NCBI GenBank assembly: GCA_021432655.1
Contig: MU271615.1
Location: 1-38,967 of the forward strand
DNA: 38,967 bases
Reading direction: 5' to 3'
Origin: Atractiella rhizophila
Lineage: Eukaryota
Shown here: in pieces, positions 5,669 to 37,514 of the stretch
Numbering within the stretch: position 1 is the stretch's first letter
Layout: each line of letters begins with the position of its first letter
The notes under the pieces: generated by a model
What the model was told of the DNA's origin: nothing
The model's database searches: none
The model's input: the letters and a program-made list of their open reading frames with translations, nothing else
Position numbers and translations under genes: made by a program

Positions 5669-6712
5669 ATGTCGTTCCTGGGTCTTGATTTCAGTTGGTT
5701 GTGGAATATTCTTGCCTCTTTGGGTACGTCGCTCCTTTGCCACAGTCACAGTAATGGTGGCTCTGTGGGGTTTGCGTTTAGGCATCCTTTGGAGAGAGAA
5801 CTGACATTTCTCTGGTAGGGCTCATGAATAAGAATGCAAAGATTCTCTTCTTGGGGCTCGATAACGCGTTTGTCCCGCCTTCTCCTCTTCCAAACTTTTC
5901 TTACTTGTACCGGTGCTTCTAGCGGAAAGACTGTGCGCTTTTTTTCTGGTATTCGCTGTTTGGGGGTATCGAGAGAGTGAATGGGTGATTGACAGACCTT
6001 ACTCCACATGTTGAAGAACGACCGACTGGCTACCCTGCAACCGACCCTCCACCCAAGTGCGCTTTACTCTTAGACTCTTCAAAGGTGTAACTGAGCCGCT
6101 CTCTACTGGGTTATAGCGTCAGAGGAACTGGCTATTGGGAACATTAAGTTCACCACATATGACCTTGGAGGACACGAGATTGGTATGTCTTTATCTTTCC
6201 TTCTTCCTCTCTAGATTGTGTCGATCAATTGCTCATAACGTGTGCTGTGTTTCAGCTCGCCGACTATGGAAAGACTACTTTCCCGAAGTCGACGGTATCG
6301 TCTTCCTCGTCGATAGTGCAGACAACGAACGGTTCCGAGAGTCCAAGCAGGAATTAGATAACCTGCTGAGCATCGAACAGCTTAGCAATGTGCCCTTCCT
6401 CATTCTCGGAAACAAGATAGACGCGATGGGAGCCGTGAGCGAGGATGAACTGAGACACCACTTGGGAATGTATCAGACCACTGGAAAGGTGCGTCTTCTG
6501 GTTTATTCTGCAAGTAAATGGAAACCTGAATTAATTTGTTTGTGGTGATAGGGAAAAGTACCTCTCAATGATATTAGACCTATTGAGATCTTCATGTGCT
6601 CTGTAGTGATGAGGCAGGGGTATGGTGAAGGTATGTCCTCCGTCTCCGCTTCTTTTACTTTACTCATGGAGTCGCCGAATCAGGCTTCCGCTGGCTGGCA
6701 CAATACATCTAA
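5669..6712 (+). CDS. SAR1: Small COPII GTPase Sar1
   Basis: Spliced: [94 protein letters not shown]...LGNKID...[20 protein letters not shown]. Confidence 0.97.
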
Positions 6713-7003
6713 ACCCGAACTCCTCTCCGAATCCACTGGCTTGAGATTTCCTTACTGTCCATTTAAACCTCATACATTTCCATTTTCTCTTCATTCTTGT
6801 CATCGTTGTCGTCGGTCGGGTTCAGACTCGTTGCATGGTTCGCCAACTTATTCTTTCTTTCTCTTCTCGTTGAAGTTCGAGGTGACGTTCATGATATCTT
6901 TATGATTTACATGAACCAGAATCGATAAACGCTCTAACTCCACATCCCTCCTGGGAACCTTTTATCTTTGAGTCGCCGACATATTCCAATGTAAGGTTTG
7001 CGT

Positions 7004-8432: not shown

Positions 8433-11110
<2,678 letters not shown>

Positions 11111-11438: not shown

Positions 11439-13971
11439 ATGAATGTGGTGACGAAGAAGGAGCAGACTGATAGGGGGATCCAAGAGATCGCGAAACGCGC
11501 GCTCAATCCCAAGCCGCGTCCGGACCAAGATTTCACTATCGTCGTTGATGAAGCTGGTAACGAAGTCTCTACCCAAGAACGCATCGTGAAGGATGTCCTT
11601 CCTCCGCTTTCACATCGTCCCACGGACGAAGAGTTCTTCGACAAGAACGACCCAACCAAACCGAATGTCCAGTTGTTAAAGGAGCACTTCTTTAGGGAGG
11701 GAAGGATTAAGGAGGATCATGCTCTGTGGATTGTCGAGAAAGCAAGCGATATCATGCGGAATGAGCCTAATTTGATCGAAGTTGATGCTCCCATTACGCG
11801 TGAGCTCCCATCTACCTCTTGTTTCTGGGTAGTGGGTTGAGATGAATTTATTTGCCGGAAATAGTCTGTGGAGACATCCATGGACAGTATGTGCGTCTTT
11901 TAGGCTTGTCGGGTTGAGCTCAAGTTGCTCAAGGTATGATTCTGTAGTTTGATCTTATGAAGCTCTTCGAGATTGGAGGAAATCCAGCAGAGACCCGATA
12001 TCTTTTTCTTGGGGACTACGTCGATCGTGGATATTTTTCCGTCGAGGTGGGCTTTCTCTCCTCAAAAGCATCGCTGCAAGTCGCTCCTGATCCCGCTTAC
12101 GTACTGTCAATAGTGTGTCCTCTACCTGTGGGCGCTCAAAATCTGGTACCCAGAGACCATGTACCTCCTGCGAGGCAATCACGAGTGTCGGCATTTAACG
12201 GACTACTTCACTTTCAAACTTGAATGTGAGTTTCGCCCAATCCACCCAATCGCGAATCGAGCCATTCTTGATCTTCCCCGCGGAGGATCGCTCATACTCA
12301 GTTGGTGAATAGGCAAGCACAAGTATTCAGAGCGGCTATACGAAGCCTGTATCGAGTCTTTCTGCACCCTCCCGCTCGCCGCTGTCATGAATAAGCAGTT
12401 CCTTTGCATCCATGGCGGTCTCAGCCCGGAGCTCAACACCCTCGACGACATCCGCACCGTTCGTATCCTTTACCTCACTTTTTAACCGATACGCCCAACG
12501 GAATTTTGCTAGATCGATAGATTTCGTGAACCTCCGACTCATGGATTGATGTGCGACATCCTTTGGAGCGATCCCATCGAAGATTATGGGAGCGAGCGTA
12601 CGACAGACCACTTTGTTCACAACCATGTTCGTGGTTGCTCGTTTTTCTTCAGGTATACTGTTCCCTTTCCGGTCTTTGATTGTGGCTGAGCAAGAGGCAG
12701 CTATGGAGCTGTGTGTTCATTCTTGGAAAGGAACGGCTTGCTTTCCATCATTCGTGCACACGAGGCTCAAGATGCCGGGTTGGTTCTTACCCTCTACCAT
12801 CGATATCGACTAAGATATGGGCTTGTGCAGCTATCGAGTATACCGTCGCACACGGACAAATTCCTTTCCATCCCTAATGACTTATTTTTCGTGCGCTTTT
12901 CCTCTTCGCTGTACAGAGAGGAAAGCAGGACTGATGGTCTTTTACGTTTGTAGTGCACCGAACTATTTGGACGTGTATAACAACAAGGCTGCTGTGTTGA
13001 AGTATGAAAATAACGTCGTTAATATCCGCCAATTCAACTCTTCGAACCATCCTTATTGGCTTCCAAATTTCATGGACGTTTTCACTTGGAGCTTACCATT
13101 TGTAGGCGAGAAAAGTGTGATTCCCAGTTTCAGTACCTTCGATCAAACTGATGTGGAGTGTAGTCACGGATATGCTGATCGCTATGCTGGGTATATGCAG
13201 CAAGGAGGAGCTGGATGAGGATGACGAGGAGATGGCGTCCATCAGTGAGACGTCGGAAGAGGCGAAGGATATTTCAGGTTCGTCATCCTGTCGTAGTTAT
13301 ATCTTCATCATTCCGCCTGATCCATCGATTCATCCATTTTCTGACGCATGTCATTTAGCGGAAGAGTCGGCGGCCCGGAGGCAGGCAATCAAGAAGAAGA
13401 TTCTCGCCGTCGGTAAGATGTCACGAGTGTTCGCCGTGCTTCGAGAGGAAGCGGAGGCTGTTTCGGAGCTGAAGAGTATGAGCGGGAACGAGAAGCTGCC
13501 CTACGGTCTGCTAGCTAATGGAGCCGAAGCACTCAAGAAATCAATAACCTCTTTCGAGGAGGCACGCAAGTCCGATATCCTCAATGAATCACTGCCACCA
13601 CCTCTTGTGGATGCAGATCCCGAAGAATATGGCTCCCCTGTGGCCTCTGGAACGGCGACACCCACCATGCCGCCGGAGGCATCGTCAAGCCCTCTCTCGC
13701 CTTCTTCTAGCTCGCCGATTGCGAGCACAAGCAACCACAGCCGCTCGAATTCGCTGTCTACCGTCTATCCTTCTGCGGGAGAAATGAATCGGATTGGAAG
13801 GGGTCATTCCAGAAAGCCGAGCCTGGGGACGACGATGTCAAGCCCGAGCACAAGGCGCAGATCTCTGGAACAGACTCTCAACCTCCTCAGGTTCGTTCTT
13901 CGTCCCTTCGATTCATCAACGTCTTCATTGATGTATGAAACTAAACTGACAGGTCTGCGATGAAGATGTGA
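11439..13971 (+). CDS. Calcineurin catalytic subunit A (PP2B), copy 2 (diverged tandem paralogue)
   Basis: [83 protein letters not shown] and [16 protein letters not shown]. 11 introns, no stops seen after splicing. Confidence 0.94.
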
Positions 13972-18317: not shown

Positions 18318-20105
18318 TCAAGCAGAGAGGACGCCCAATCCCAATTTCGTGTACAAATAGGGAATGCAGAAACTGGATATGTATCCAATTCCAGAGTAGA
18401 CAAAGAATCGGGTGAGGACTGTTCCAAACCCACATCAGCGTCCAGATCAACTGGTATTGCAAAGAGCAGAGGAGTGGACGAACCATCCACGTCGTAATGC
18501 TTAATCTTCTTGGCGGGAATGATACCCTCAGGTTCCTCCTCCTCCTCCTCCACACTCGGCATCCTCCTCTCCTCCCTCTCGACCTTTTCCTCGACCTTCT
18601 CTCCCTTCTCATTCTTCTTCCCACCTCGCCTCTGCACCAAGGCGCTTTGTTGATCATGTAGCTGATGATCTCCGAGTGCGGTCAAATCCAACACTGAGGG
18701 GATGGGATGTAAACCGGCGTCGGCGGACTCGTATTTCTTATACCGTGTCGCTTGTGTATAGTGTCGGCGGGGGAGGACGAGGTATGGGGCGACGGTGCGG
18801 AAGATTGGAGGGAGGACGGCGTGCAAGGTTTCTTTGGCTACCAACCTACATTCCACATCGTTAGTGCTCTTGAGGACTGAAGATGGGGGAGGAAGGGACG
18901 AACCGCCATAGAAAGACTAAACCTACACCCATGACTACCTTTGCGATGGAGGTGCCCAGGAAGATCAACAGATCCGGGTTGTCAGTGAGTGGACTGCCCC
19001 TCGTGTACCCCGCCAACGCCACTCCGAAGGTGACGATCTGCCAATGAGCGATGTAGATGCCCAAGCTGACCGAGACGATAGCGATAGCGTCTTCGAAGCA
19101 CGGACAATCGTCTACCGGTTCAGGATGTACAGACACCAACAAGAGGGTGAGGGGACGGCGAGTGCGGGAGCCACCCATCCAGCCGTCGCTGTCCAGTCTG
19201 CGATCGGGGTTTCCCACTCGAGCGCGAGATAAAGACTGCCACGCCTAACATGATGCCGACCACGCAGTCGATGATGGAGTGCATGCCGCAGTACAGACGA
19301 GAGAGGACGACGGAGGTCATGTAGATGCAGAGGAGCGTGATCGAGAGGATGGAGACCCATGAGCTGGGGCCGAAGGAGGAGACGACGTCGGCTATCAGGA
19401 AGAGACCCATGGAGACTGCATTCGTGCTGTGTGTGGAGGGAAAGCCGTATTCCAATGCGTGGGAGGTGCCGGAGGTGAGACGATGAAGCGGTGGGCAATA
19501 AGGGCGAGGGACGCAGAACAGATCTAGACAAATCAATTATTCACATCATAGGGGTAGGAGCATAGGGGTAGGAGAGAGAAGACAAACCTTTGAGATAAGA
19601 TGTTATGTATATCCCGATGGAAAGGGTGTGGACTACGCTCGCTCCGAGATGGGGGAAGCCGAACCAATAAAAGAGGGGAAGGAAGAGGAAAAAGAAGGTA
19701 TGTGTGCTATTACATGCAACCACAACGCATCAGATCATGCACATCTTTCATCTCCACATGTTCTTTCTTGTAAAAGGAGAAAACGCACCCAGCTAGCGAC
19801 GCTTGGGCGAACCACCAATCCCAGAACTCGGATCTCAGTCTGCTCTGCCACTCCACCAACAGCGCATTCTCGTTATTCTCCAGATGCCACACCAGCCATT
19901 CCCTAGTTTTTGCGCGCCACCTAGGCAATAATCTGGTGTACACCGACGGATGACAGCAGCCTGCAGGTGTAGGTGCCGCGTCCGGTGAGACTGAACCGGG
20001 AGTGAAAGCACTGGTTGGCGTTGGGGAGGGAGATGGAGATGGAGATGGAGAGGGTGAGAAAGGGGAGGGAGCGTATATCTCGCTAGGGATTCCCTTTGCC
20101 TTCAT
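18318..20105 (-). CDS. LCB3: Sphingoid long-chain-base-1-phosphate phosphatase (PAP2 family, Lcb3/Ysr2-like)
   Basis: KDLFCVPRP, EYGFPSTHSTNAVS and SRLYCGMHSIIDC (three PAP2 motifs), HPEPVDDCPCFED, and C-terminal HYDVDVLTRFFVYSGIG. Confidence 0.9.
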
Positions 20106-20808
20106 TTTGGGATTTTGAGACACTGGCAAGGGACTCTGGAGGAGAGGACTTGTCGTTTTTTTAGTAGCGTGTAGCGTGACCGGATGTGGGGATCAGAAAT
20201 AAAGTTCGCCTGACTCTCCTCCCGTGGTTCTCAGTTCCTCGACTACGGCCAAGTTCCAAAGGAATGCTGCAGCTCACCCTGTAAAGTCAACAGAAGAGGA
20301 CGTGTTTACGTTGATTCTTTATATAAATTATCACAGGCCTCACCTACTTAACTTGAAACACTGGTTTTGTAGGTCGTGTGTACTCAGTGGCCCATACATC
20401 CGTCACTTTTTTAATTTGTTATTGCAATCAAGGTTTTATAACTAAATTATCAGAGTATCCTCTATTCATCTGCTAAATACTCTTACGGCTCGTTATGCTC
20501 AGCTTAATGTGGCTATCTATTGTCTATTGATGACTGACCGTTAATTTGTGTTAGAATAGCATGTAAAATTTTCATCCTGGTACTTCCCATCGTAATCTAT
20601 TGCTCAGGTACTCTAAAGATCGTCAGTGATGTGGCTGTAAGTTGAAGGCCTCGTTAAAGATTTTTGACAAGAACCAAGACGAAATTTGGCCCATAAAAAG
20701 TGGATAATGATAAGACAGAAGCCGTGCGATTGGGAACCTCACCTTTTGAGTCTAACTTCTTATATCTGGATATTTCAATGTCAAATCTGCACATCTCTTC
20801 TCCTAAAG

Positions 20809-20863: not shown

Positions 20864-22144
20864 CAGTCATGATGTGCAAAGATGCTGAATTGGCTGATGA
20901 TGAGACCAGCGAAACATGTTCTGCACCAGATATCTTGCGGCTATCTTAAAATTGGAGCAACATAGGACGCTGGTGAGAAGCTGCTGGAACGAAGACTGTA
21001 TACGCTCCAAAGAACCGCATGCTGTGGCAAAATAATGAAAGACTCTGAAGGAAGGCGGTGGTCATGACCGCGCCTGAGCACTCTCGCTCTTTGCAAGTGT
21101 GAGGGACGTCGCATTCCGAATATTTCCCTGGCGTCGAGAAACAATATTCCAAAAACCCTTCTCCATCACCTTCCAAGGAGAACGCGCACCTTCAGTTTGG
21201 TTGGAATACTTCACATCGAGAAAAGAGGCTTTCGCCTTATAAGCGTTAATCATGCCAACCACCTCGTCTGCCTACAATGGTTTCCAAACAGGGCATTTGG
21301 AGTCTACAGCTCGTTAGGGTTCCTGCCATGTCCCAAGTCGAATTGTAAAAGAGGTCTCTCCTCAAGTCCTCTATTTCGATACGGGAATCTGTTCTCGCCC
21401 AGAAAGGTGTTAAATACAATGTTCAGCATTCCTTCAACGTCCCTATATGCACTGGCCCACTAAAACGAAAGTCAACGAAGGTCAGCATGTTCTGAATAGC
21501 TGAAGGTCCCCAATTTGTGGACGAGGATCATTCGATTCCCGGGCAACCTAGATCGGCTGCTTTTCGGACACTTGGAAGCTAGTGTCTAGAATACCTCAAA
21601 CAACGACTGACCTCTACGCTCTCTTATTGCTTATGCCAAACTGGGGGGACATCAAAGAGACTCTTAGGGATACCATTTCTGTGAGTATTTTGCATTTTTA
21701 TCACCTCATAACCTGCGCCTGCACGGCCGCCAGGCCGTCGTCAAGCAGCGGAAGTTGACCGCGCGGGACACGCTCCTTGATTGAACTCTCTTAACCACCA
21801 ACAGTTCCACTTCTCACTTCTCTTCCTCCAATTTTTTTCCGTCAGAAACGTCTGGGTAACGTCGAGAGAGCCTTAGACGGTCATATCAGTTCGTTTTTCT
21901 CTTTTTTTTCGGGGGCGTGAAAAGAGTAATTGCGGTGTTTCATCGACGTCTTCAATTTTGTGACGTCTGCGTCAGAACTCCTATCTAAAACACATCATCT
22001 CCCTTCCGATTCTTCTCAAAAATCCGTCGACAAGGGGAGAATTTGATCTGACACTGGCTGCAGGGACCAAAGGATAGCTCTCGAAACGCCTCCCTATCCC
22101 CGCCAAGCCAACCGCAACCACCTCTCCCGACCCCACTATTCGCC

Positions 22145-25100
22145 ATGTATTCGACCTCACAACATCAAAACGACGACGACTCTCGCTCTCCCACCTCGAC
22201 CAACTACGCCCGACCCTTCGGGCGAGAGAACGCAGCACCAGCAGGCGGCCTCGCTTACCCCCAGGGCGGGGGTTACGAGAACAGCAGCAACCCCTCCCGC
22301 CGGGATTCGTACATTGAATCCGACCCCCTCCGCCCCTCAGACCACCCTGAGTCGCCGAGAGCGGACGACGCCAGTTCGAGCAATGAGTCTTCGAATTCTG
22401 GTACAAAGGTCGGAGATTCCAGGAGTGGATATAGAGTGAAGGGGGCTAATGGGTACGCCGGTGGAAACCCTCCGTCGAATGGAAGACATGACACTGCAAG
22501 TAGTGAGAGCTCGTGGAATGGACAACCCGGATTGAGAGATTCGATGCATGGTGCCGTCCAGGTATGTACTTTTCCGCATTCTTAAAGTGTATTGGTAGAG
22601 TTTGCTGTATTTGCTCGGTGCTACATTCGAGTCGACACCAATTCCCTCTCATTCTTTGTTTATTCTGGGATTGCGGCAATGGTTTTTGGAGTGCATAATT
22701 GGCTGCACCCTTATCTGGAACAGCTTTTCACTCCAAAGACCGCAAAACTGGAAGCTCTTGTATGCGGAACACATATCAATTCTATCCTATCCTTGACGCG
22801 AGAGGTGCAAGACAGCTTGACTTTTTTTTAATGCTTCTCATGGCTCAACGGATCTTGATGGCTTGTGTTGGCAGTCCGAATCCTCACACATCTACTCTGA
22901 CCAGCATGGCTATTCTGCGGGTAAGTGTCCATTCTGACAATGCTTCTCAGGACCCATCGCTAACGGACGGTTTGACAGCTCCATACGGTCGCTATCGGAC
23001 AGGATCCTACGGCGATGGTTTGAACTCTGCCCGCGCATCAACGATTGGGACGGACCACATCGTTGGAGGGATCGGCGGACAAGGTCTCTCCCATAATTCG
23101 TCTCGCGTGGCGTTGAATAACGAATGGCGAGGTAAGTTGATATGTCTCATCCATACCATCGGCCACCATTCTCTTGGTGCTGCGGTATCTAATCGGCGCG
23201 TGTTGGAACAGGGTACGAACCTGATGAGAAGGGTCTTGCTTCTGGCCATCCAGACTCGAAAAACTCTTATCAGACCATCCCTCCTGCTTCTCCCGCGCTC
23301 AAGGGCATGGATGAGAAGCTCGATGCGAAGGAAGCTCCCCCCGTCGATGGTGCGAAGGCGCCTCCCCCAGTTATCATCAGCCGAGCGAATCGAATGGACT
23401 GGATCGATGGGCTGAGAGGAATAGCATCCCTCATCATTTTCACTCACCATTACTCAGACTTAACCTGGTCCCTCAGCCATCCCAATGTATTGGCTTACGG
23501 TAGTGTTTACGGTTTCTTGGCGTAAGTCCTCCGTCAGTTTTCTCGTCCTACCAGCTTACTGAGAGATGGTTGTGTGTAGAAATGGTCAACTTGCGCTTTG
23601 CATGTACTTCCTTCTCGGAGGGCGAGTACTTTGCCATGGATTCTATCGCTCCGCCTTCACCAAGCCCAAACCGCTAATGGATCATGGAGAGATTGTTCCC
23701 AACCAGCCCCCTCTAAAACCGCCAACTCCACGATGGATGTCGCTCTCTTCCTCCCTTTTTAGACGGTCTATCCGACTGGCTTTCCCAGCTCTCGTCGTTG
23801 GATTCATACAATGGCTCATCTGCCGCGCTGATTGGATTGGGAACACCCCGGAACAGGCGAATGAGATTCTGAGGCCCACTAACCTTTGGAACCCCACTTG
23901 GTGCTCGATTGGTAACTTCTGGGGACTCTTGCAGTTCTTCCTTGATCTCTTCACCAACCGTAACCATCAGTACATGCTTTACGCCGGTTCCGCCCTGTGG
24001 ACGACTTACGATCAGTTCTGGGGATCCGTTCTTGTCTACATCCTCGCTGCCACCCTCGCCCCCATCGCTGTTCGTGGTCGCTTCCTTATTTATGGCATCG
24101 TCCTTGTCTCCCTTTGGTGGATCAACTCGCCTAACTTCCTCTACATTATTGGTCTCGCAGTCGCTGATCTCTCAGCGTCTGGTTACATTCGGAAAGTACA
24201 AGATCATTGGAAGCCCACAATCGCTATCGAGGTGGCCGTAATGGCTCTCGCTCTCGCTTTCATTGCTGGAGGAACCGATGTTGCTTCTCCAGCTGACCAA
24301 GTCATGGGTGACATCACTGTTTACGACGGAAAATTCGGTTGGAACCATTCTCGAATCTGGCCTCAGTACATGCTCATCTCGAATTGGTATCCCCCAACCG
24401 CAATTCTCATCTGGGTCGAGTTGTCGCACGCCATGCAGTGGTTCGCCTCCTGGGGTATCTTCACGTGGATTGGCAAAGTTTCATACGGTTTTTACTTGAT
24501 GCAGTTCATCACACTCTACACCATCATGCCTCACCTCATCATAGCCTTCCACAACGACGGAAATAGCTACTGGGACACTGTGACACCCACGTATATCATT
24601 TGCCTGCTCATCAACATTTTCTTTGCCTGGTGAGTTCATGTCTTCTCTTTCCTAGCATCTGGGTCTGACTATCATTGAAAGGGTCGCTTATCACCTCCTC
24701 GATCGTGTCGGTCTCAAGCTCGGCAAATGGATCTGGGATGGATTCTTCGTCTCGAAGCCGAACAACTTTGCCGCTCTCCCTCTCAAGGCCATCAAGGCGT
24801 TTTTCCACTTCCTCATCCACGCGCCAGGAGAATTTTTCACCAAGTCGACCACAAGAACATCAAACAAGTTCAACGGCTTCGTCAAAGGTGTTCACACCCT
24901 CTTCAACTGGAGATCTCCTACTACTCGACCCCCTGTGCCTGACCCTACCGATCCCGATATCATCGCTCAGCTGCATTCTACAAGGTGGACCAGCGATCTC
25001 TCCCACGACCAAGAAGCTGTTCGGACTGCGAAACTCTTGCGCTTCCAGCAATGGACTTGGGTCGGTCCGTGTTTCAGTACTCCTATTCTGACAAAGACTG

Positions 25101-26811
25101 AGAGATATCTATAGGTCATTTGTTCTGGATTCCTGGAATCAGTGCCCTTTGGCTTTACTTCCACCCGACGTAATTATTCCCTTCTTTATGTCTAAGAGCT
25201 GATTCTGACCTGTTCAACAGCGGTAAATGGACATATGATGTCTTGACCTTCAGCAGTTTGTGGCGTTTCATTTGGGTTTTGTCCTGTAAGTCCATGCTGT
25301 TTTCCCTGCATAACGAGAATCCCACTAACTATCCTTAGTGCCCAACTGTCTCTTCGCCTACTTTGGATTCATCACTCCCGACTGGGCGCCTTCAAAGACT
25401 GAAATGGACAAGAAGCCAGTCTATCGTGAATATATTCGAAACTTCTTCGTCCTCCTCGTCACCAAAGGATCGAACGAATCGGCTGTACGAAGAGGTTATA
25501 ACAAGCTCATCAAGTTGGAGAAGTATCACCCTGCCGTCAAGGTCGTCGTCCTTACCGATGAGCCTTACGCTTATCCCGACCTCCAAAATATCGTCTGTCC
25601 CAAATCATACGTTTCCCCTCTCGGAAAGGCAAAGTACAAGGCTCGAGCGCTGGATTATTTCCGGTATCACGTTTCCTTGGGTGTATATGACTGGATCTTG
25701 CACAGTAAGTTTCGCCAGTGCCTCCCCTTTCGAGCAACGCTCACCATGAATGACCGTTCTCAGTGGACGAAGAGTCTGTTACGGATGCTGAATCACTCCG
25801 ACGGTGTATCGAATTTGTGCGATATACTCCCCATCACTTTGGTCAGGGAATTATTCTCTACAACGGAGAAGGGTTCTGGAGCAATTGGTACTTCACTGTG
25901 GCCGACGGTATTCGTGTAGGCGACGATCTGGCTCGTTTCCACTTCCAAAACTCTGTCATCAAACGTCGTGCGTATAATCTATCGTTTGCAACGTGTAGCT
26001 GGCTCATCATAATGCTTTTGATAGCTGTTTTCGGAGTGCACGGTTCATTCTTGATGACAAATGGAGAGATGGAGAACGAGTGTACCTGGGATTTCGGTTC
26101 GCTTGCTGAGGACTTCGAGTTCTCTCAAGATGGTCAGTCATCCATCTTACATCCTTCCGTTCTTTACTCACTCCTGCAATAGCTTGGAGACGTGGCTTTA
26201 CTTGTGGTCGCATTCATGGAATCGTCAGAGAGCAGAGTCCCACCACACTACGAGATTTCCTCAAGCAGCGTCGTAGATGGTTTATGGGTATCCGGGACAT
26301 TGTATGTGCTATCCACTGAAGGTGAATACTAAACCAACAAATCTTACAGAAAGGGATGTACGGCCTTCCGAACTTGGCTATCAATCTCTGGATTGTTGGC
26401 GTCTTCACTCTCGCCGTTACCGTCGTCAACTTCTTCTTGGTCTTTGTCGACGAGTCGTTGACCCCGGTATGGATTGCCGCTTGTGCTGATTTCTGCTTCA
26501 TCACCTTCTACGTACGTATACCACATCGTGGCCAACCATGTTCTGATGCATTCTTTTATAGACGCTGTATCTTTGGGGACTCCTCTTCCAAGAGCTCGAT
26601 TACGGACAAAAATGGTGGATGATACCGGTCCATCTGATTTGCTCCGTTGTCATCCAACCCTTCGCTTCTGTTGCTGAAGGTCTCTCTGCCATCTGGGCCA
26701 TGTCGTCAGAGGACTTTGGAAAGTTCGAAGTTATTGGTGAGCCGACTTCTTTCATACTGTCTGCTCTGCCAACATGGATACTAATTCTTGATCTCAACAG
26801 TCAAAAAGTAG
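22145..26811 (+). CDS. Fusion protein: disordered N-terminus + acyltransferase-3 (membrane O-acyl/acetyltransferase) + egghead/BRE-3-like GT2 glycosyltransferase
   Basis: AT3 signature RMDWIDGLRGIASLIIFTHH and WIGKVSYGFYLMQ with many hydrophobic helices. GT2 part KARALDYFR...DWILHMDEES...GQGIILY...ADGIRVGDD...HGSFLM...GSLAED...EQSPTTLRDFLKQRRRW. The spliced frame is continuous between the two domains. Confidence 0.88.
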
Positions 26812-27587: not shown

Positions 27588-30130
27588 ATGGCATCTTCAA
27601 CCCTTTATATGTCACCAATAGCTCTCCCAGATCAAGTACTCAATAATATCCCGGATGTGTCACTCTTCCACGTCTTGAAGGGAGATGTGAATGGTGAGTG
27701 TCTCCCGTGCCCTATGCTATGAACTTGTATTCATGTGCTGAGGGTCGTAGATGAACGATGGAAACCTGTGGGTGGCGTTCACAAGCCACTGTTCATCGAC
27801 GGCCTTAGTGTGCGTCCTACCTCCTCTCTTTCCTTTAAACTTCCTCGAGATAGTATGGCTGAATTTTGCACGAGTGTAGGGCGTCTCTCGCACGCATCCT
27901 GAGCAATTCGAGCGATCCGAGCACCTCAGTCGCGGTCTCCTCAGCCTCCCGTTTATCCAGACTGGAGGAGAGGAGCTAGGAACGATGGGGATCCTCACAC
28001 CAAACCATATGGACTTTGTGCGTTATGCCCTTCACTTATCCCAAGGAAGATTCAGACTGAAATTTCACAATGTTTGTCGCTGTAGCCTACCGCCGTCCTG
28101 TCATCAATCCAAATCGGTTTCCCCTTCGCCGCTATGTCCTCTACATCGACATCGAACGAAATTGCGCACTACATTCGAGTTGCGTCCGTCAAAGCTTTGA
28201 TCGTGCACACGTCTCTTCTATCCTCCGTGCTCACCGCCTGCAAGTCCACATCTTTTCCTACATCGAATATCATCCTGCTTGGGCCGTCCCCTCCCAAAGG
28301 ATACCTCACAGTCGACGACCTCATCAAGAAAGGGGCGGGCTTAGCTCCTGCTCCAGTCGCGACTATTCCGAAGCATGGAATCGTTTGGTGCGTCTTCTCA
28401 AGCGGCACCACGAGTTTGCCCAAGGCGGTTGGAATCACGCATAAAAACGTGATTGCGTTCCTCCTCGGGATGAAACACATTGGGGAATCAATGACCAGTG
28501 CATACGAGAAGAGTGGGCAGAAGCCACCCATAGACCCGAGCGTGGAGAGGCCGATTGCGCTGGCACATTTGCCCATGTATCATGTAAGCTTCCATAGCTC
28601 GTTTCATCGGATTCGCTTTCTAATGTTTCGCCCTCTTGGTGCGGATAGGTCTATGGACTTGTTCAGCTCGTTGTCCGGTCTTTTATTGCTCCGGCAACCT
28701 GTAAGCTTCGTCGTATTTTCTCCACGGTGTCGAAACTGATAACCAACAGTGATCGTGATGCCGAAGTTCGATCTCGACCTCTTCCTCACGCTGGTACCAA
28801 AGTATGTGCTGCTTTGCGCCTGTCATAAGTAGATGTCTAAGTCGTGTAAAGGTACAAAGTGAACCACCTGCTCCTCGTCCCAACCATCGTTCACATGCTG
28901 GTCGCCAATCCCAAGACACAGCAGACCGATTTCTCCAGCGTGAAGGTACGCGGGCATGCAATCATCCACCTTTAACTTAGTAGGGATAATAGGCAGCGGC
29001 TTCCGGTGCGGCGTACCTAGGCCCAGACATGCAAATGAAGTTCACCAACCTCCTTCGTTCGCGCGGCGCACAACTATCAGAGCCCTCGCCCAAAACCGGA
29101 GGGGGGATCACGAGCGGGTTCGGCATGAGTGAGGTTGTGGTTTCAGGAACGTTTGCGCCAGTTGCAGGTGCGATAGTCCAATTTGTGCATCTGATGAATA
29201 AGTGGCTGACGTTCTGTTGGATAAGGTATGCCATGTGGACCTGTGAAGCTGGGCTCCGTTGGAGTGCTCTACCCGTCTCTCAAGGCGAGACTTGTGGATC
29301 CGGAAACGGGGAAAGATGCTAAAAGAGGTGGACCTGGAGAGCTTTGGTTGAAGGGCCCGAGTGTGATGAGGGGATATCTGAACAACGAAAAAGGTGCGCC
29401 CTGCTTCATTTTGTGTCGGGAAAAGTTTTAATTGACTCACTGTGATTCGTATTTCATAGCCAATAAGGAGACCTTTTCGGATGATGGGTGGCTAAAGACG
29501 GGAGATGAATTTAGGATCGATGATGAAGGTCATCTTTTCTATGTAGGGTTTCCTTTTGTTTCTTTGGAAAGAAGATTAAGAGTTCTTGGGGGTTTCAGGT
29601 CGATCGTTTAAAGGACATCTTCAAATGTCGAGGCAAGTATTCTTTTGGATTTACTTTGACAAGCTAAACATGGACACCCTGCACTCAGGTCTTCAAGTCA
29701 CCCCTGGAGAGATCAACAGTGTGATACGCACAAATGTGCCGTACATCGTCGACTCGTGCGTCGGAGGTGTTCCCTCTCCTGCAGGGGCCAAAATAGGAGA
29801 GGTCCTGCTCCTTCATCATCTCTTGCATCTTGTTACTCACGAGATCTGATGCAGGAGCCATGGGCATGGATCGTACTGAAGGAGGAAGGGAAGCGGATGG
29901 ACCCTAAGAAAGTAAAGGAAGAGGTTGCAGAGGTGGTGAAGAAACATTTGGCGAGGCACAAGTGGTTGAGGGAGGTGGTAAGTTTTCCTATTCGCACTGC
30001 AAGCGACGATGATGTCAACTGGTCACCTTAGGTCATTCTCGACGCTCTGCCAGTCTTAGCTAGTGGTAAGAAGGTCGTGAGACAGCTCAGAGATGAGGCA
30101 ATCAAAAGCCAGAAGGAGTCGAAGCTGTAG
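27588..30130 (+). CDS. Peroxisomal AMP-dependent acyl-CoA ligase (4-coumarate-CoA ligase/luciferase-like)
   Basis: [65 protein letters not shown] and SGKK. Ends QKESKL* (PTS1). Confidence 0.92.
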
Positions 30131-33058: not shown

Positions 33059-33324
33059 GGTTGTCGCCTGCTATGTACTGTCAGCTATCCTCTAGTAGGA
33101 GTTCAAAACTTGTCGAGAAACGGAACAGATATCTTATACGTCAATATCCTCTCGCTTCGCATTGTATCTATTTCTCCTAGCTGTGCTCTAGGCTCATATC
33201 GATAATATATCACACCCATTTGTAACCATACCTTGGGAGGTAGAGACCGCAATCGCAATCGCTATTCCTGATTTCAAATACAAGTTGTCTTGCTCGGAAT
33301 GATCGATGGGCCAAATCCATCGCG

Positions 33325-34429
33325 ATGCCTGCCACAGTAAGCATTCATTCCCATCAAAACCACCTCAAATGGGATAACTCCCTCCCTCCCATCGCACGAG
33401 TCTCCTCAGGAGATACTGTCTCATTCTCCTGCCTAGACGCAAGCAATGGACAAATCACTGCTTCTTCCACCACTTCCTCTCTTCAATCGCTCGACTTTTC
33501 TCGTTTGGACCAAATAAACGGCCCTATCTACGTTGAAAGCGCGAAACCGGGAGATGTACTAGAAGTTGAATTCTTGAGCGTGAAACATGCAAGTTGGGGA
33601 TGGACAGCTGTTATCAAGGACTTTGGATTATTGGCCAATGAGTATGAAGAGAGTCTTAAGATTTGGAAATTAGATGAAGAGGAAGGATATGCATGGTTCA
33701 ATAACCAGATTCGAGTACCCCTGGACCCATTCATGGGAGAAATTGGCGTCGCCAGAGGAGAGCCAGGAGCTTGGAGCACTATCCCACCGTATAAGACAGG
33801 TGGAAATATCGATACAAAATATGTGACGGAAGGATCAAGGTTGTTTCTCCCTATCGAATGCGAAGGTCCACTTTCATTTTAGTAGATGTGCAGTAAACTA
33901 ATACGTGCTGTCAAAAGGTGCTCTTTTCTCCATTGGCGATGGACACGCTTGTCAAGGCGACGGCGAAGTGTGCGGAACAGCAATCGAGACTCCGATGGAA
34001 GTGGTTGTTCGACTGACAGTGCATTCCTCCACGACTTCAAGCTCTACAAGTCTTAACAAACCCCAGCTGGTGAAGACGCCACACATCCTTTCCCTTCCTC
34101 AAAACAACAGTAAATCGATCAGCATCCGCGCCGAACGAGAATCCAAGGGCTTTTATGCGACAACGGGTGTTGGAGATAACTTGCTTGAAGCATCGAAAGA
34201 GGCTATCAGAGCAATGATTGCATGGCTGAGTGCTGAGAAAGGCCTAGAGGGGAAAGATGCGTATATGCTTTGCAGCGTCGCTGTTGGTGAATGACCTCGA
34301 TTTAACTCTGGTTATCCCGTACTGATTTTTGGGTACGCAGATTTGAGGATCACGGAGATCGTCGACATGCCTAATTTCGTAGTTGGAGCGTTTTGCCCAC
34401 TCTCCATTTTCGTAGATCGATGGATCTAG
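33325..34429 (+). CDS. Acetamidase/formamidase family protein
   Basis: WDNSLPP, GPIYVESAKPGDVLEV, IPPYKTGGNID, FSIGDGHACQGDGEVCGTAIE and AYMLCSVAV|DLRITEIVDMPN. Two introns. Confidence 0.93.
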
Positions 34430-35712: not shown

Positions 35713-35897
35713 GTTGAGATGCTCAAAAATGGATTTCCTGAGCCCTTTTCCGGCCGTCGAACAAAGAAAATATCTGGTTCCGCGTTTCGATCAGTTCAAA
35801 AAGGACCACGACAAGGAAACATTCTTCGTCGACAGGTTGAATATTGAGTTAGTTATAGTGAGCAAGATATATTTCTAGAGGTTGCGTAGAGAAGGGT

Positions 35898-37514
35898 ATG
35901 GTCCTTAGTGCGTGTCCCTTAATAAATCATGAGGCAGACGAAGAATTGACTGCAAACGCGAGATCAGTCAACAACCTCAAATTCTCCTGCCAATCCTGTA
36001 TTTCAGGTCACCGGTCCTCCAACTGTCAACACCTCGAGCGCACTCTCTACGAAATCCGGAAAAAAGGACGTCCGATTTCCCAATGCGTTGATTGCAGGCA
36101 GGCAAGGAAGGGAAAGGGGATCCACGCGAAATGCGTCTGCGAGAATGCAGTGAGAGAGGTGGAGAGGGATCTTATCGTTCTCAAGAATGGAATTAGCGAC
36201 GCGAGTGTAGAAGGTGAGGACAATCCGTTTGAGAAACTGGGACTTTTTCCTCCCACCACCGCGACAAGCCTCTCCGCGGCAAATCAATCATCACCACCGA
36301 CATCTGGCACCGCCAACACTGCCATTCCACAAAGGGCAACGACAAAGGTGTCCATCACCTCCTTGCTCAATCCATGTTCCTGCGCAACCAGCGGATTATG
36401 CGACTGTGGAACACGCTCTGCCATACTTGGGAAGATGACACCAGCTCAGAAGAGGAAGCTCATTGCCGCGAAGCGAGCGATGAAGCGCGCAGAGAAGGAC
36501 AAGATCAGATCCTCATCCATCTCTGCTTCAGTGACTCCCGCTCCTCCTGCCACGAACGCACCTGCGGTTTCCGCAGGCTGCTGTTGCAAGAAATCCGCCG
36601 AGCCATCCCCTACTCCTGCTCCTACCTCTCCTGCTCCCGCACCGTTAAAACTGCCGGAGCTCGACTCACCCACGTCGACTGTGTCCTTCTCTCTCTCCAA
36701 TGATTCTCTCCCTCCTACCCCCGCGCCAGGATCAACGCTGTGCTGGTGTGGCGATGCATGCGCTTGTGTAGGATGCAAGGTTCACGACCCTCTGGGAATG
36801 AAGAAAGATAGGAATGGGAAGGGACGACTTGGCTGTGGAGGACAGGGTATTGAGCCCATTCCTGAGATGGCGGAGGGGATGGTCCTCCCAGACTTGGTGG
36901 GAGCGGATGCTGATGGGCTGCGGCGTTTCTTCTGGACCGAAGGAGAGGAGCTGGCGCCTCTTGGTGCTGTTGCGTCTGCAGTTGAAGTCGAGCTCGAAAA
37001 TGGCGCGAGAGATTCAGGAGGAGGGAATGAGAGGATCACACGTGCGAGGAGGAGCTCGTCCATTCGCCTTCCCAGTCTTAGCACACTGAATCTAGGAGAT
37101 CTTGCCAGTGGCAACTTTGAGAATATCCCAACCGAAGAGTGGAAGGCTTTGGGACGTCTCGTCGAAGTAGATCACGGTATTGCGTCTCAGTTCCCTCGGC
37201 TCTTGCCTCCTCTTACGAACAATTCCGAGAACACAGTACTCCAACCTCTCCCTCCGATCTTGGGACAACCATTGAAACCGCTAGACGGTGCTGGGGGTTG
37301 TTGTGGCTCTAGAGACACTGAAGTTAAGACGGGAGCGGACACCAGGCCACCTGGTGTTGGTTGTTGCAGCCTCGATGTTGGGATGGATATCGATATCGAT
37401 GATAATCTGCCTGATGATGGGTTGTGCGATGAAGACGCGGAAGGGGAGGATGATCCGGACTTTCTCATGGCTTGCAATTGTGGTGCTGGTTGCCCTTGTG
37501 GAACGAACAAATAA
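35898..37514 (+). CDS. Copper-fist transcription factor (Ace1/Mac1/Cuf1 family)
   Basis: After removing intron 35908-35967: MVLINNLKFSCQSCISGHRSSNCQHLERTLYEIRKKGRPISQCVDCR...HAKCVC. Internal CWCGDACACVGCKVH (CxCx3CxCx2Cx2H) motif. Confidence 0.92.
   Translation: MVLSACPLINHEADEELTANARSVNNLKFSCQSCISGHRSSNCQHLERTLYEIRKKGRPISQCVDCRQARKGKGIHAKCVCENAVREVERDLIVLKNGISDASVEGEDNPFEKLGLFPPTTATSLSAANQSSPPTSGTANTAIPQRATTKVSITSLLNPCSCATSGLCDCGTRSAILGKMTPAQKRKLIAAKRAMKRAEKDKIRSSSISASVTPAPPATNAPAVSAGCCCKKSAEPSPTPAPTSPAPAPLKLPELDSPTSTVSFSLSNDSLPPTPAPGSTLCWCGDACACVGCKVHDPLGMKKDRNGKGRLGCGGQGIEPIPEMAEGMVLPDLVGADADGLRRFFWTEGEELAPLGAVASAVEVELENGARDSGGGNERITRARRSSSIRLPSLSTLNLGDLASGNFENIPTEEWKALGRLVEVDHGIASQFPRLLPPLTNNSENTVLQPLPPILGQPLKPLDGAGGCCGSRDTEVKTGADTRPPGVGCCSLDVGMDIDIDDNLPDDGLCDEDAEGEDDPDFLMACNCGAGCPCGTNK

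Follow-up and report, generated by a model that had tools for sequence, protein, structure and literature searches.

A conserved fungal gene that joins an AT3 membrane acyltransferase to an egghead-family glycosyltransferase: a candidate beta-mannan synthase-acyltransferase

Egghead is a beta-1,4-mannosyltransferase of the glycosphingolipid pathway (PMC10337751). AT3 membrane acyltransferases, whose common forms are stand-alone proteins and fusions to an SGNH domain, are proposed to carry acyl groups from a cytosolic donor across the membrane to a glycan; a review of them names their R/K-X10-H and RXXR motifs and gives the eukaryotic AT3 targets as unknown (PMC9558356). In the synthase BcsA, the gating motif FxVTxK is required for catalysis (PMC10592267). 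Here we describe a gene of Atractiella rhizophila, a fungus of the Pucciniomycotina lineage, in which an AT3 domain and an egghead-like glycosyltransferase of family GT2 are joined in one polypeptide. It lies in a stretch of 38,967 nucleotides (the window; contig MU271615.1 of assembly GCA_021432655.1), and has the following parts, with positions numbered on the window, motif residues in the numbering of the database protein P0001, and conservation counted in 48 fused homologues selected from four groups:

21889..22063, + strand: intron in the 5' untranslated region, a GT..AG joint skipping 175 bases in RNA runs X1 and X19
22145..26811, + strand: whole coding gene, 15 exons and 14 introns, 1207 amino acids (aa), ATG to TAG
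22145..23306, + strand: N-terminal 237 aa, Ser/Gly/Pro-rich (exons 22145-22561, 22875-22920, 22979-23131 and the start of 23212-23521)
23379..24629, + strand: AT3 (PF01757) membrane acyltransferase domain (exons 23212-23521 and 23580-24629; the last helix runs into the next exon)
23415..23450, + strand: R-X10-H motif in AT3 helix 1 (R37, in 48 of 48 homologues; H48, in 43 of 48)
23764..23775, + strand: RXXR motif of AT3 (R134, in 48 of 48; R137, in 46 of 48)
24682..25064, + strand: linker exon, with the end of the last AT3 helix, a long helix, a Pro-rich stretch and the approach to the first GT2 membrane helix
25115..26811, + strand: egghead-family GT2 domain (exons 25115-25169, 25221-25285, 25339-25704, 25764-25967, 26025-26132, 26183-26301, 26350-26511, 26562-26736 and 26801-26811)
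25766..25774, + strand: DEE, a DxD-like donor/metal motif (D713-E715), in 48 of 48
26096..26113, + strand: GSLAED, the TED equivalent (E808 and D809 in 48 of 48; D809 is the presumed catalytic base)
26266..26280, + strand: QRRRW (QxxRW), in 48 of 48
26724..26805, + strand: C-terminal F-x-V-x-x-K (F964-K969), split by the last intron, the equivalent of the BcsA FxVTxK gating loop

The AT3-GT2 fusion is a real, expressed fungal gene. Joined by their coordinates, the exons give a stop-free frame of 1207 codons, from the ATG at 22145 to the TAG at 26809-26811, and all 14 introns are of GT-AG type, the first 313 nt long and the others 48-80 nt. The alternative donor/acceptor pairs tried at introns 6, 7 and 12 give shorter frames (805-1201 aa); the splice sites at 25065 and 26349 were chosen by RNA. 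Contigs from four of the 24 listed RNA runs were compared with the gene, and all four runs contained spliced contigs of it. Thirteen introns appear as contig joints, and at the fourteenth (25170-25220) the RNA has joints with letters between them and a loose end. Three of the four runs contain the AT3-linker joint, and all four contain the linker-GT2 joint. Where a transcript ends is beyond what contigs can show, and none of those listed from these runs covers the gene in full; the two parts nevertheless probably lie on one transcript, since spliced contigs overlap (X19 record 9 extends from 24025 across the linker, X2 record 15 begins at 24724 and reaches the GT2 exons) and homologues carry both domains: among 39 long proteins related to the AT3 exon, 32 match both Pfam families. 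The RNA joints, together with the conserved fused homologues, rule out that these are two separate genes or that the fusion is an artefact of annotation. An earlier note on this DNA had read one stop-free polypeptide running from AT3 through a linker into GT2, and splicing and RNA bear it out; its motifs stand where it placed them (DGLRG at 23406, IFFAW at 24616, DEE at 25766, GSLAED at 26096 and QRRRW at 26266), and the linker it set at 24681-25065 exists as an exon whose exact limits are 24682-25064.

The database model P0001 (970 aa, A. rhizophila) is identical to the final 970 residues encoded by the spliced frame. It begins at an internal Met and therefore lacks 237 N-terminal residues, along with three introns that RNA supports. 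These residues are supported because the three introns are spliced in RNA and because they match the N-termini of most Pucciniomycotina homologues, at 29-45% identity. The gene is single-copy in the A. rhizophila assembly.

The architecture is widespread. Of 415 collected proteins, redundant and partial ones included, 99 match both domain profiles. Among the matches listed (the best 120 of 156, 120 of 463 and 150 of 1050, many of them unnamed), fused proteins occur in Pucciniomycotina (rusts, Microbotryum, Rhodotorula, Mixia, Cystobasidium and others), in smut relatives (Ustilago, Sporisorium, Meira and others), in Dacrymycetes (Calocera and Dacryopinax) and in several chytrids; the blastoclad Paraphysoderma has several fusion paralogues, AT3-AT3-GT2 forms included. 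The lineages of five species were checked, and the remaining species are given their customary placement. Among the same matches, which come from word-limited searches, the fusion was not seen, which is not to say that it is absent, in Agaricomycetes, Tremellomycetes, Ascomycota or Mucoromycota. Unfused GT2 relatives are common in chytrids and occur also in bacteria, animals and two ascomycetes. A quick tree was built from 89 selected GT2 domains (SH-aLRT support only, midpoint root); in it, the 30 fused proteins form one branch with support 100, together with three short unlabelled sequences that may be fragments; unfused chytrid proteins adjoin this branch, and the animal egghead proteins (two named sequences) group with bacterial proteins on another well-supported branch. 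As judged from these sequences, the fusion has an old, single origin and forms one clade over Pucciniomycotina, smuts, Dacrymycetes, chytrids and a blastoclad. By full-length homology and shared motifs it belongs to the broad egghead sequence family, and by the tree it is not an orthologue of animal egghead. A rotifer (Brachionus) protein, P0057, falls near the fungal unfused GT2s and away from animal egghead, perhaps by transfer or contamination. Two Rhodotorula toruloides models (P0400 and P0406) join the fusion gene to the neighbouring Ap4A phosphorylase, probably by annotation read-through, since the two genes stand apart in other strains.

Orthologue names in the databases already say egghead, as in 'related to beta 1,4-mannosyltransferase (egghead protein)', and NCBIfam has no family for the fusion. 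Full-text literature searches, with most subscription journals outside their reach, found no study of an AT3-GT2 fusion or of a fungal beta-mannan synthase. An account of fungal sphingolipid enzymes (PMC13161914) makes no mention of egghead, and in the 3,440 rows listed from a fitness screen of R. toruloides (PMC5922974) a PF13632 gene, RTO4_10384, not tied to the orthologue (CDR39189.1, RHTO0S04e02630g), is without clear defect. The earlier note knew of no characterised fungal enzyme with this build, and counted it as a refutation should the architecture prove both widespread and functionally characterised. It is widespread, old and already in databases, but apparently unstudied.

Both halves are recognisable and keep their catalytic motifs. 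As the earlier note had predicted, a Pfam scan of the protein finds Acyl_transf_3 (PF01757; 56.1 bits against a cut-off of 31, residues 31-423) and Glyco_trans_2_3 (PF13632; 104.6 bits). An AlphaFold2 model built from 102 sequences has a mean pLDDT of 91.2 and a pTM of 0.85. Its AT3 half is a confident helical model in the transmembrane-acyltransferase fold, a family marked by about ten membrane helices, and human HGSNAT can be superposed on residues 27-433 (Z 17.1, rmsd 4.7, 291 residues). The AT3 domain is 59-70% identical among Pucciniomycotina-type homologues. The linker exon, spliced on both sides and helical in the model, is 47-67% identical in these homologues and 35-40% in two chytrids. 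The note's assignment of the AT3 half to the OafA/OatA type did not hold for the architecture, because the scan gives AT3 and GT2 families only, with no SGNH domain, and the C-terminal half folds as GT2.

A further AT3 subfamily, which lacks the His of helix 1, is linked to the fusion in three settings. In Geranomyces a His-less AT3 protein has a locus tag consecutive to that of the fusion, and in Paraphysoderma a His-less AT3 is fused in front of AT3-GT2. A. rhizophila itself has a stand-alone AT3 gene without this His on contig C78 (L091, G000:C78:56500-63500, - strand), most similar to the protein next to the fusion in Geranomyces and to the leading AT3 of the double-AT3 fusions in Paraphysoderma; the 3' part of the gene lies within a 2-kb tandem duplication that is 97.9% identical.

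In the GT2 half, D713, E715, E808, D809, Q844, R847 and W848 are invariant in the 48 fused homologues, and the family profile aligned over GSLAED agrees with the TED region of BcsA. F-x-V-x-x-K is kept in 92 of 97 aligned sequences, without the Thr of the BcsA motif. The half is 77-88% identical across the intact models of rusts, anther smuts and red yeasts, and matches an abalone egghead-like protein at 28% identity over 406 aa (E 8e-43). In the model, residues 546-961 align with tied scores to BcsA (Z 20.4), CesA (20.0), the archaeal enzyme PcManGT (19.7) and hyaluronan synthase (19.6). A single-sequence search of solved structures gave nothing useful, and matches in the ESM Atlas, all below 0.9, serve as leads only. 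When 16 unfused egghead-like proteins, most of them bacterial, are combined into a profile, BcsA is the sole solved structure that this profile matches (E 2.5e-7). The C-terminal KK was considered as an ER-retrieval signal and rejected, the same ending being present in bacterial relatives and mapping on the gating loop.

That both domains keep catalytic motifs fits a bifunctional enzyme such as the earlier note had proposed, one that builds and acylates a glycan; the mannose, the acceptor and the acyl group are, like donor and product in general, inferred, because the GT2 half is 28% identical to its animal relative and lies in a clade separate from animal egghead. With that reserve, we tentatively favour, at a little less than an even chance, a single multi-pass membrane enzyme that polymerises GDP-mannose into beta-mannan and O-acylates it, probably acetylating it. 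GT2 enzymes are inverting and use cytosolic nucleotide sugars. The cytosolic GT2 site would take GDP-mannose, as egghead does, and would make beta-mannosidic bonds with DEE, AED, QRRRW and the C-terminal gating motif. Repeated addition of mannose would yield an oligo- or polymannan, either free or on a lipid primer. AT3 would bind cytosolic acyl-CoA at R37 and RXXR, and through H48 it would hand the acyl group to the glycan across the membrane. The fusion would couple synthesis to acylation, much as bacterial exopolysaccharide operons do with separate synthase and O-acetylation genes.

The motifs kept in both domains, the synthase-like fold, the BcsA-only profile match and the gating-type motif all argue for the beta-mannan reading, as do the surroundings of bacterial relatives. 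An egghead-like GT2 was found at 203 bacterial loci, and we scanned the near neighbours of the best 80, 0.86 Mb in total. A GH26 gene lies within 6 kb of the GT2 at eight loci and a GH113 gene at four, one of them fused to the GT2, so that 11 of the 80 loci (L011:756-3398, L013, L014, L019, L036, L038, L063, L069, L071, L078 and L088), from several classes and in differing arrangements, have one or the other. From the density of GH26 in five comparison genomes (seven matches in 29.3 Mb), about 0.2 GH26 genes would be expected in 0.86 Mb, compared with the eight loci observed; in two of the five genomes with the pairing, the neighbour is the sole GH26 match. An HlyD-type gene follows the GT2 in nine scanned Acidimicrobiia loci, which are related and not independent, and two proteins carry GGDEF domains. 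These surroundings match the layout of synthase-dependent exopolysaccharide loci, in which an adjacent hydrolase is an accepted clue to the polymer of the operon (PMC7710045), and the GH26/GH113-linked loci are candidates for undescribed beta-mannan synthase loci. The Acidimicrobiia cluster (L043, L049, L050, L054, L060, L065, L068, L071 and L075) contains a GT2-LPG-synthase-TM gene, a GT4 gene, an epimerase, the egghead-like GT2, the HlyD-type gene and TPR-like genes.

The fungal side offers a candidate product. A publication title cited in PMC12029197 names an alternating beta-1,3/1,4 mannan from Rhodotorula glutinis and R. mucilaginosa, and a glucan of S. meliloti, in which cellobiosyl units are joined by single 1,3 bonds and which is tied to one GT2 operon (PMC10374906), gives a precedent for alternating linkages. 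GH26 genes number three to four in Microbotryum and rusts against a basidiomycete mean of 0.5 (PMC4469406). A wider conjecture, which we think rather unlikely, is that the egghead family consists at its root of beta-mannan polymerases, as the mannanase-linked bacterial members suggest, that the animal glycolipid enzyme is derived, and that the GH26 expansions of rusts and anther smuts serve in part to remodel their own mannan.

A number of observations weigh against a mannan polymerase. GH26 includes xylanases and lichenases and is not mannan-specific, and the bacterial GH26 matches cover only part of the profile. No GH26 or GH113 neighbour was found at 69 of the 80 loci, and an AT3 gene, sought with the fungal profile, was beside the GT2 at none of the 80. 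Identity between the fungal GT2 and the mannanase-linked bacterial proteins is only about 30%, and the latter belong to another clade. The A. rhizophila genome gave no GH26 match, in a search weakened by introns, some Rhodotorula strains are without GH26 (PMC10662464), and the GH26 genes of Microbotryum and rusts are interpreted by their authors as plant-degrading (PMC4469406). The literature searched held no report of acylation of the Rhodotorula mannan. The H48 of AT3 is missing in three of three Dacrymycetes and two of seven chytrid/blastoclad fusions; the FFxxSG motif (family form VxxFFx(I/V/L)SG) reads YFLLGG here, its Ser being replaced by Gly in 24 of 24 Pucciniomycotina and kept in 21 of the 24 other fused homologues. 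The A. rhizophila chain ends one residue after F-x-V-x-x-K, and in 82 of 93 sequences it ends within five residues of this motif; the end of the model aligns to BcsA residue 509-510 (of 728-747), the end of the FxVTxK motif, and the membrane helices that follow the gating loop in BcsA and CesA are missing. A closed export channel in the fusion protein is doubtful, because the chain stops at the gating motif without these later helices. PcManGT, which ties with BcsA in fold, has an acceptor that we take to be a lipid. Finally, egghead and BRE-3, the sole characterised members of the family, add one mannose to a glycolipid (PMC10337751).

Several of these points would suit a non-processive, egghead-like enzyme that places one or a few beta-mannoses on glucosylceramide, a steryl glucoside or a polyprenol carrier, with AT3 acylating the head group. 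We regard this as unlikely, though it is the main alternative. Egghead and BRE-3 act on glycosphingolipids (PMC10337751), and the short membrane part, with no helices after the gating loop, and the PcManGT tie point the same way. So does a GT21 glucosylceramide-synthase-like gene in the A. rhizophila genome (90.4 bits), because of which the egghead acceptor may exist there; this call is loose, however, as PF13506 also matches 10 of 14 control bacteria and archaea. The divergent neighbour of the fusion belongs to the PAP2 lipid-phosphatase family, but the adjacency, seen in one genome, may be chance. Against a glycolipid product stand the separation of the fungal clade from animal egghead, and the mannanase-family and HlyD genes that adjoin the bacterial relatives. 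There are two GT21-like matches (L009 and L010, on G000:C32 and C351), of equal score and frame length, possibly a duplicated assembly segment.

A lesser chance attaches to a coupled synthase-acyltransferase for another glycan, such as a beta-glucan or a mixed polymer, the mannose having been wrongly carried over from the animal enzyme. Identity to egghead-like proteins is 28-35%, the GT2 motifs do not fix the donor, the nearest solved relative in sequence is cellulose synthase, and one bacterial locus has a GH16 neighbour; yet both lines that name a sugar, the activity of animal egghead and the bacterial GH26/GH113 neighbours, give mannose. It is very unlikely that AT3 is not active on the GT2 product, serving as a scaffold or as the missing wall of an export channel or acylating an unrelated substrate, for although the losses of H48, the Ser-to-Gly change, the commonness of unfused GT2 paralogues in chytrids and the His-less AT3 subfamily linked to the fusion would allow it, R37 and R134 are invariant in the 48 homologues and H48 is present in 43 of them, the AT3 domain is conserved across Pucciniomycotina-type homologues to the degree given above, and the fusion persists as one clade across phyla.

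Other genes and frames of the window include:

1306-2661, + strand: frame of 451 codons, with knuckle-like Cys/His repeats towards its end and no Pfam match
6120-6902: Arf-family GTPase gene
about 8580-10670 and 11520-13630, + strand: two tandem Metallophos paralogues, 46-93% identical exon by exon
19123-20192, - strand: PAP2-family gene (PF01569, Pfam match), pointing away from the fusion gene
about 27700-30030, + strand: AMP-binding gene of the acyl-CoA ligase type, directly downstream of the fusion
33247-33879: acetamidase/formamidase gene
35865-37511: copper-fist transcription factor gene

The AMP-binding gene could supply an acyl-CoA. The PAP2-family gene presumably resembles sphingoid-base phosphate phosphatases. 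The Metallophos pair is possibly a tandem duplication of calcineurin A, their C-terminal frames looking to us like its regulatory tails, and the 451-codon frame is, we assume, like a retroelement Gag/ORF1.

If the beta-mannan reading is right, it would name a gene for fungal surface beta-mannan, whose synthase the literature searches did not turn up, and would give a eukaryotic AT3 domain a defined substrate, with the building and acylation of a polymer joined in one chain. As the fusion is strongly conserved in rusts, anther smuts and red yeasts, and no fused copy was seen among the mushrooms or ascomycetes listed, it would also account for a wall trait confined to particular lineages and offer a selective target for antifungals.

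Set beside the described systems, the fusion resembles each in part. Animal egghead and BRE-3 are stand-alone proteins of about 460 aa that act on glucosylceramide; homology to them extends over the whole GT2 part, with KARAL, HxDEE, GQG, AED, QRxRW and the C-terminal motifs common to both, whereas the fungal protein lies in a separate clade and is fused to AT3. PcManGT (PDB 6yv7), an archaeal GT2 and a mannosyltransferase by its PDB title, shares the compact fold of the cellulose synthase type (Z 19.7, 307 residues aligned) but is 8% identical, has no AT3 and is without the first membrane helix aligned in BcsA. With the AT3 proteins (stand-alone OacA-type; AT3-SGNH in OafA, OafB and OatA) and HGSNAT, the fusion shares PF01757, R-X10-H, RXXR and the HGSNAT fold match; unlike the AT3-SGNH enzymes, it has a glycosyltransferase attached in place of SGNH. 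With BcsA/CesA, hyaluronan synthase and BgsA it has in common a GT-A core, the QxxRW motif, and motifs resembling TED and the gating loop (Z 19-20), and it differs from BcsA/CesA in that its chain ends at the gating motif. Acetylated cellulose operons use separate MBOAT or partner proteins, whereas here the acyltransferase is an AT3 in the same chain. The fusion lacks one structural mark of processive synthases, and it would work like a synthase with an attached modifier.

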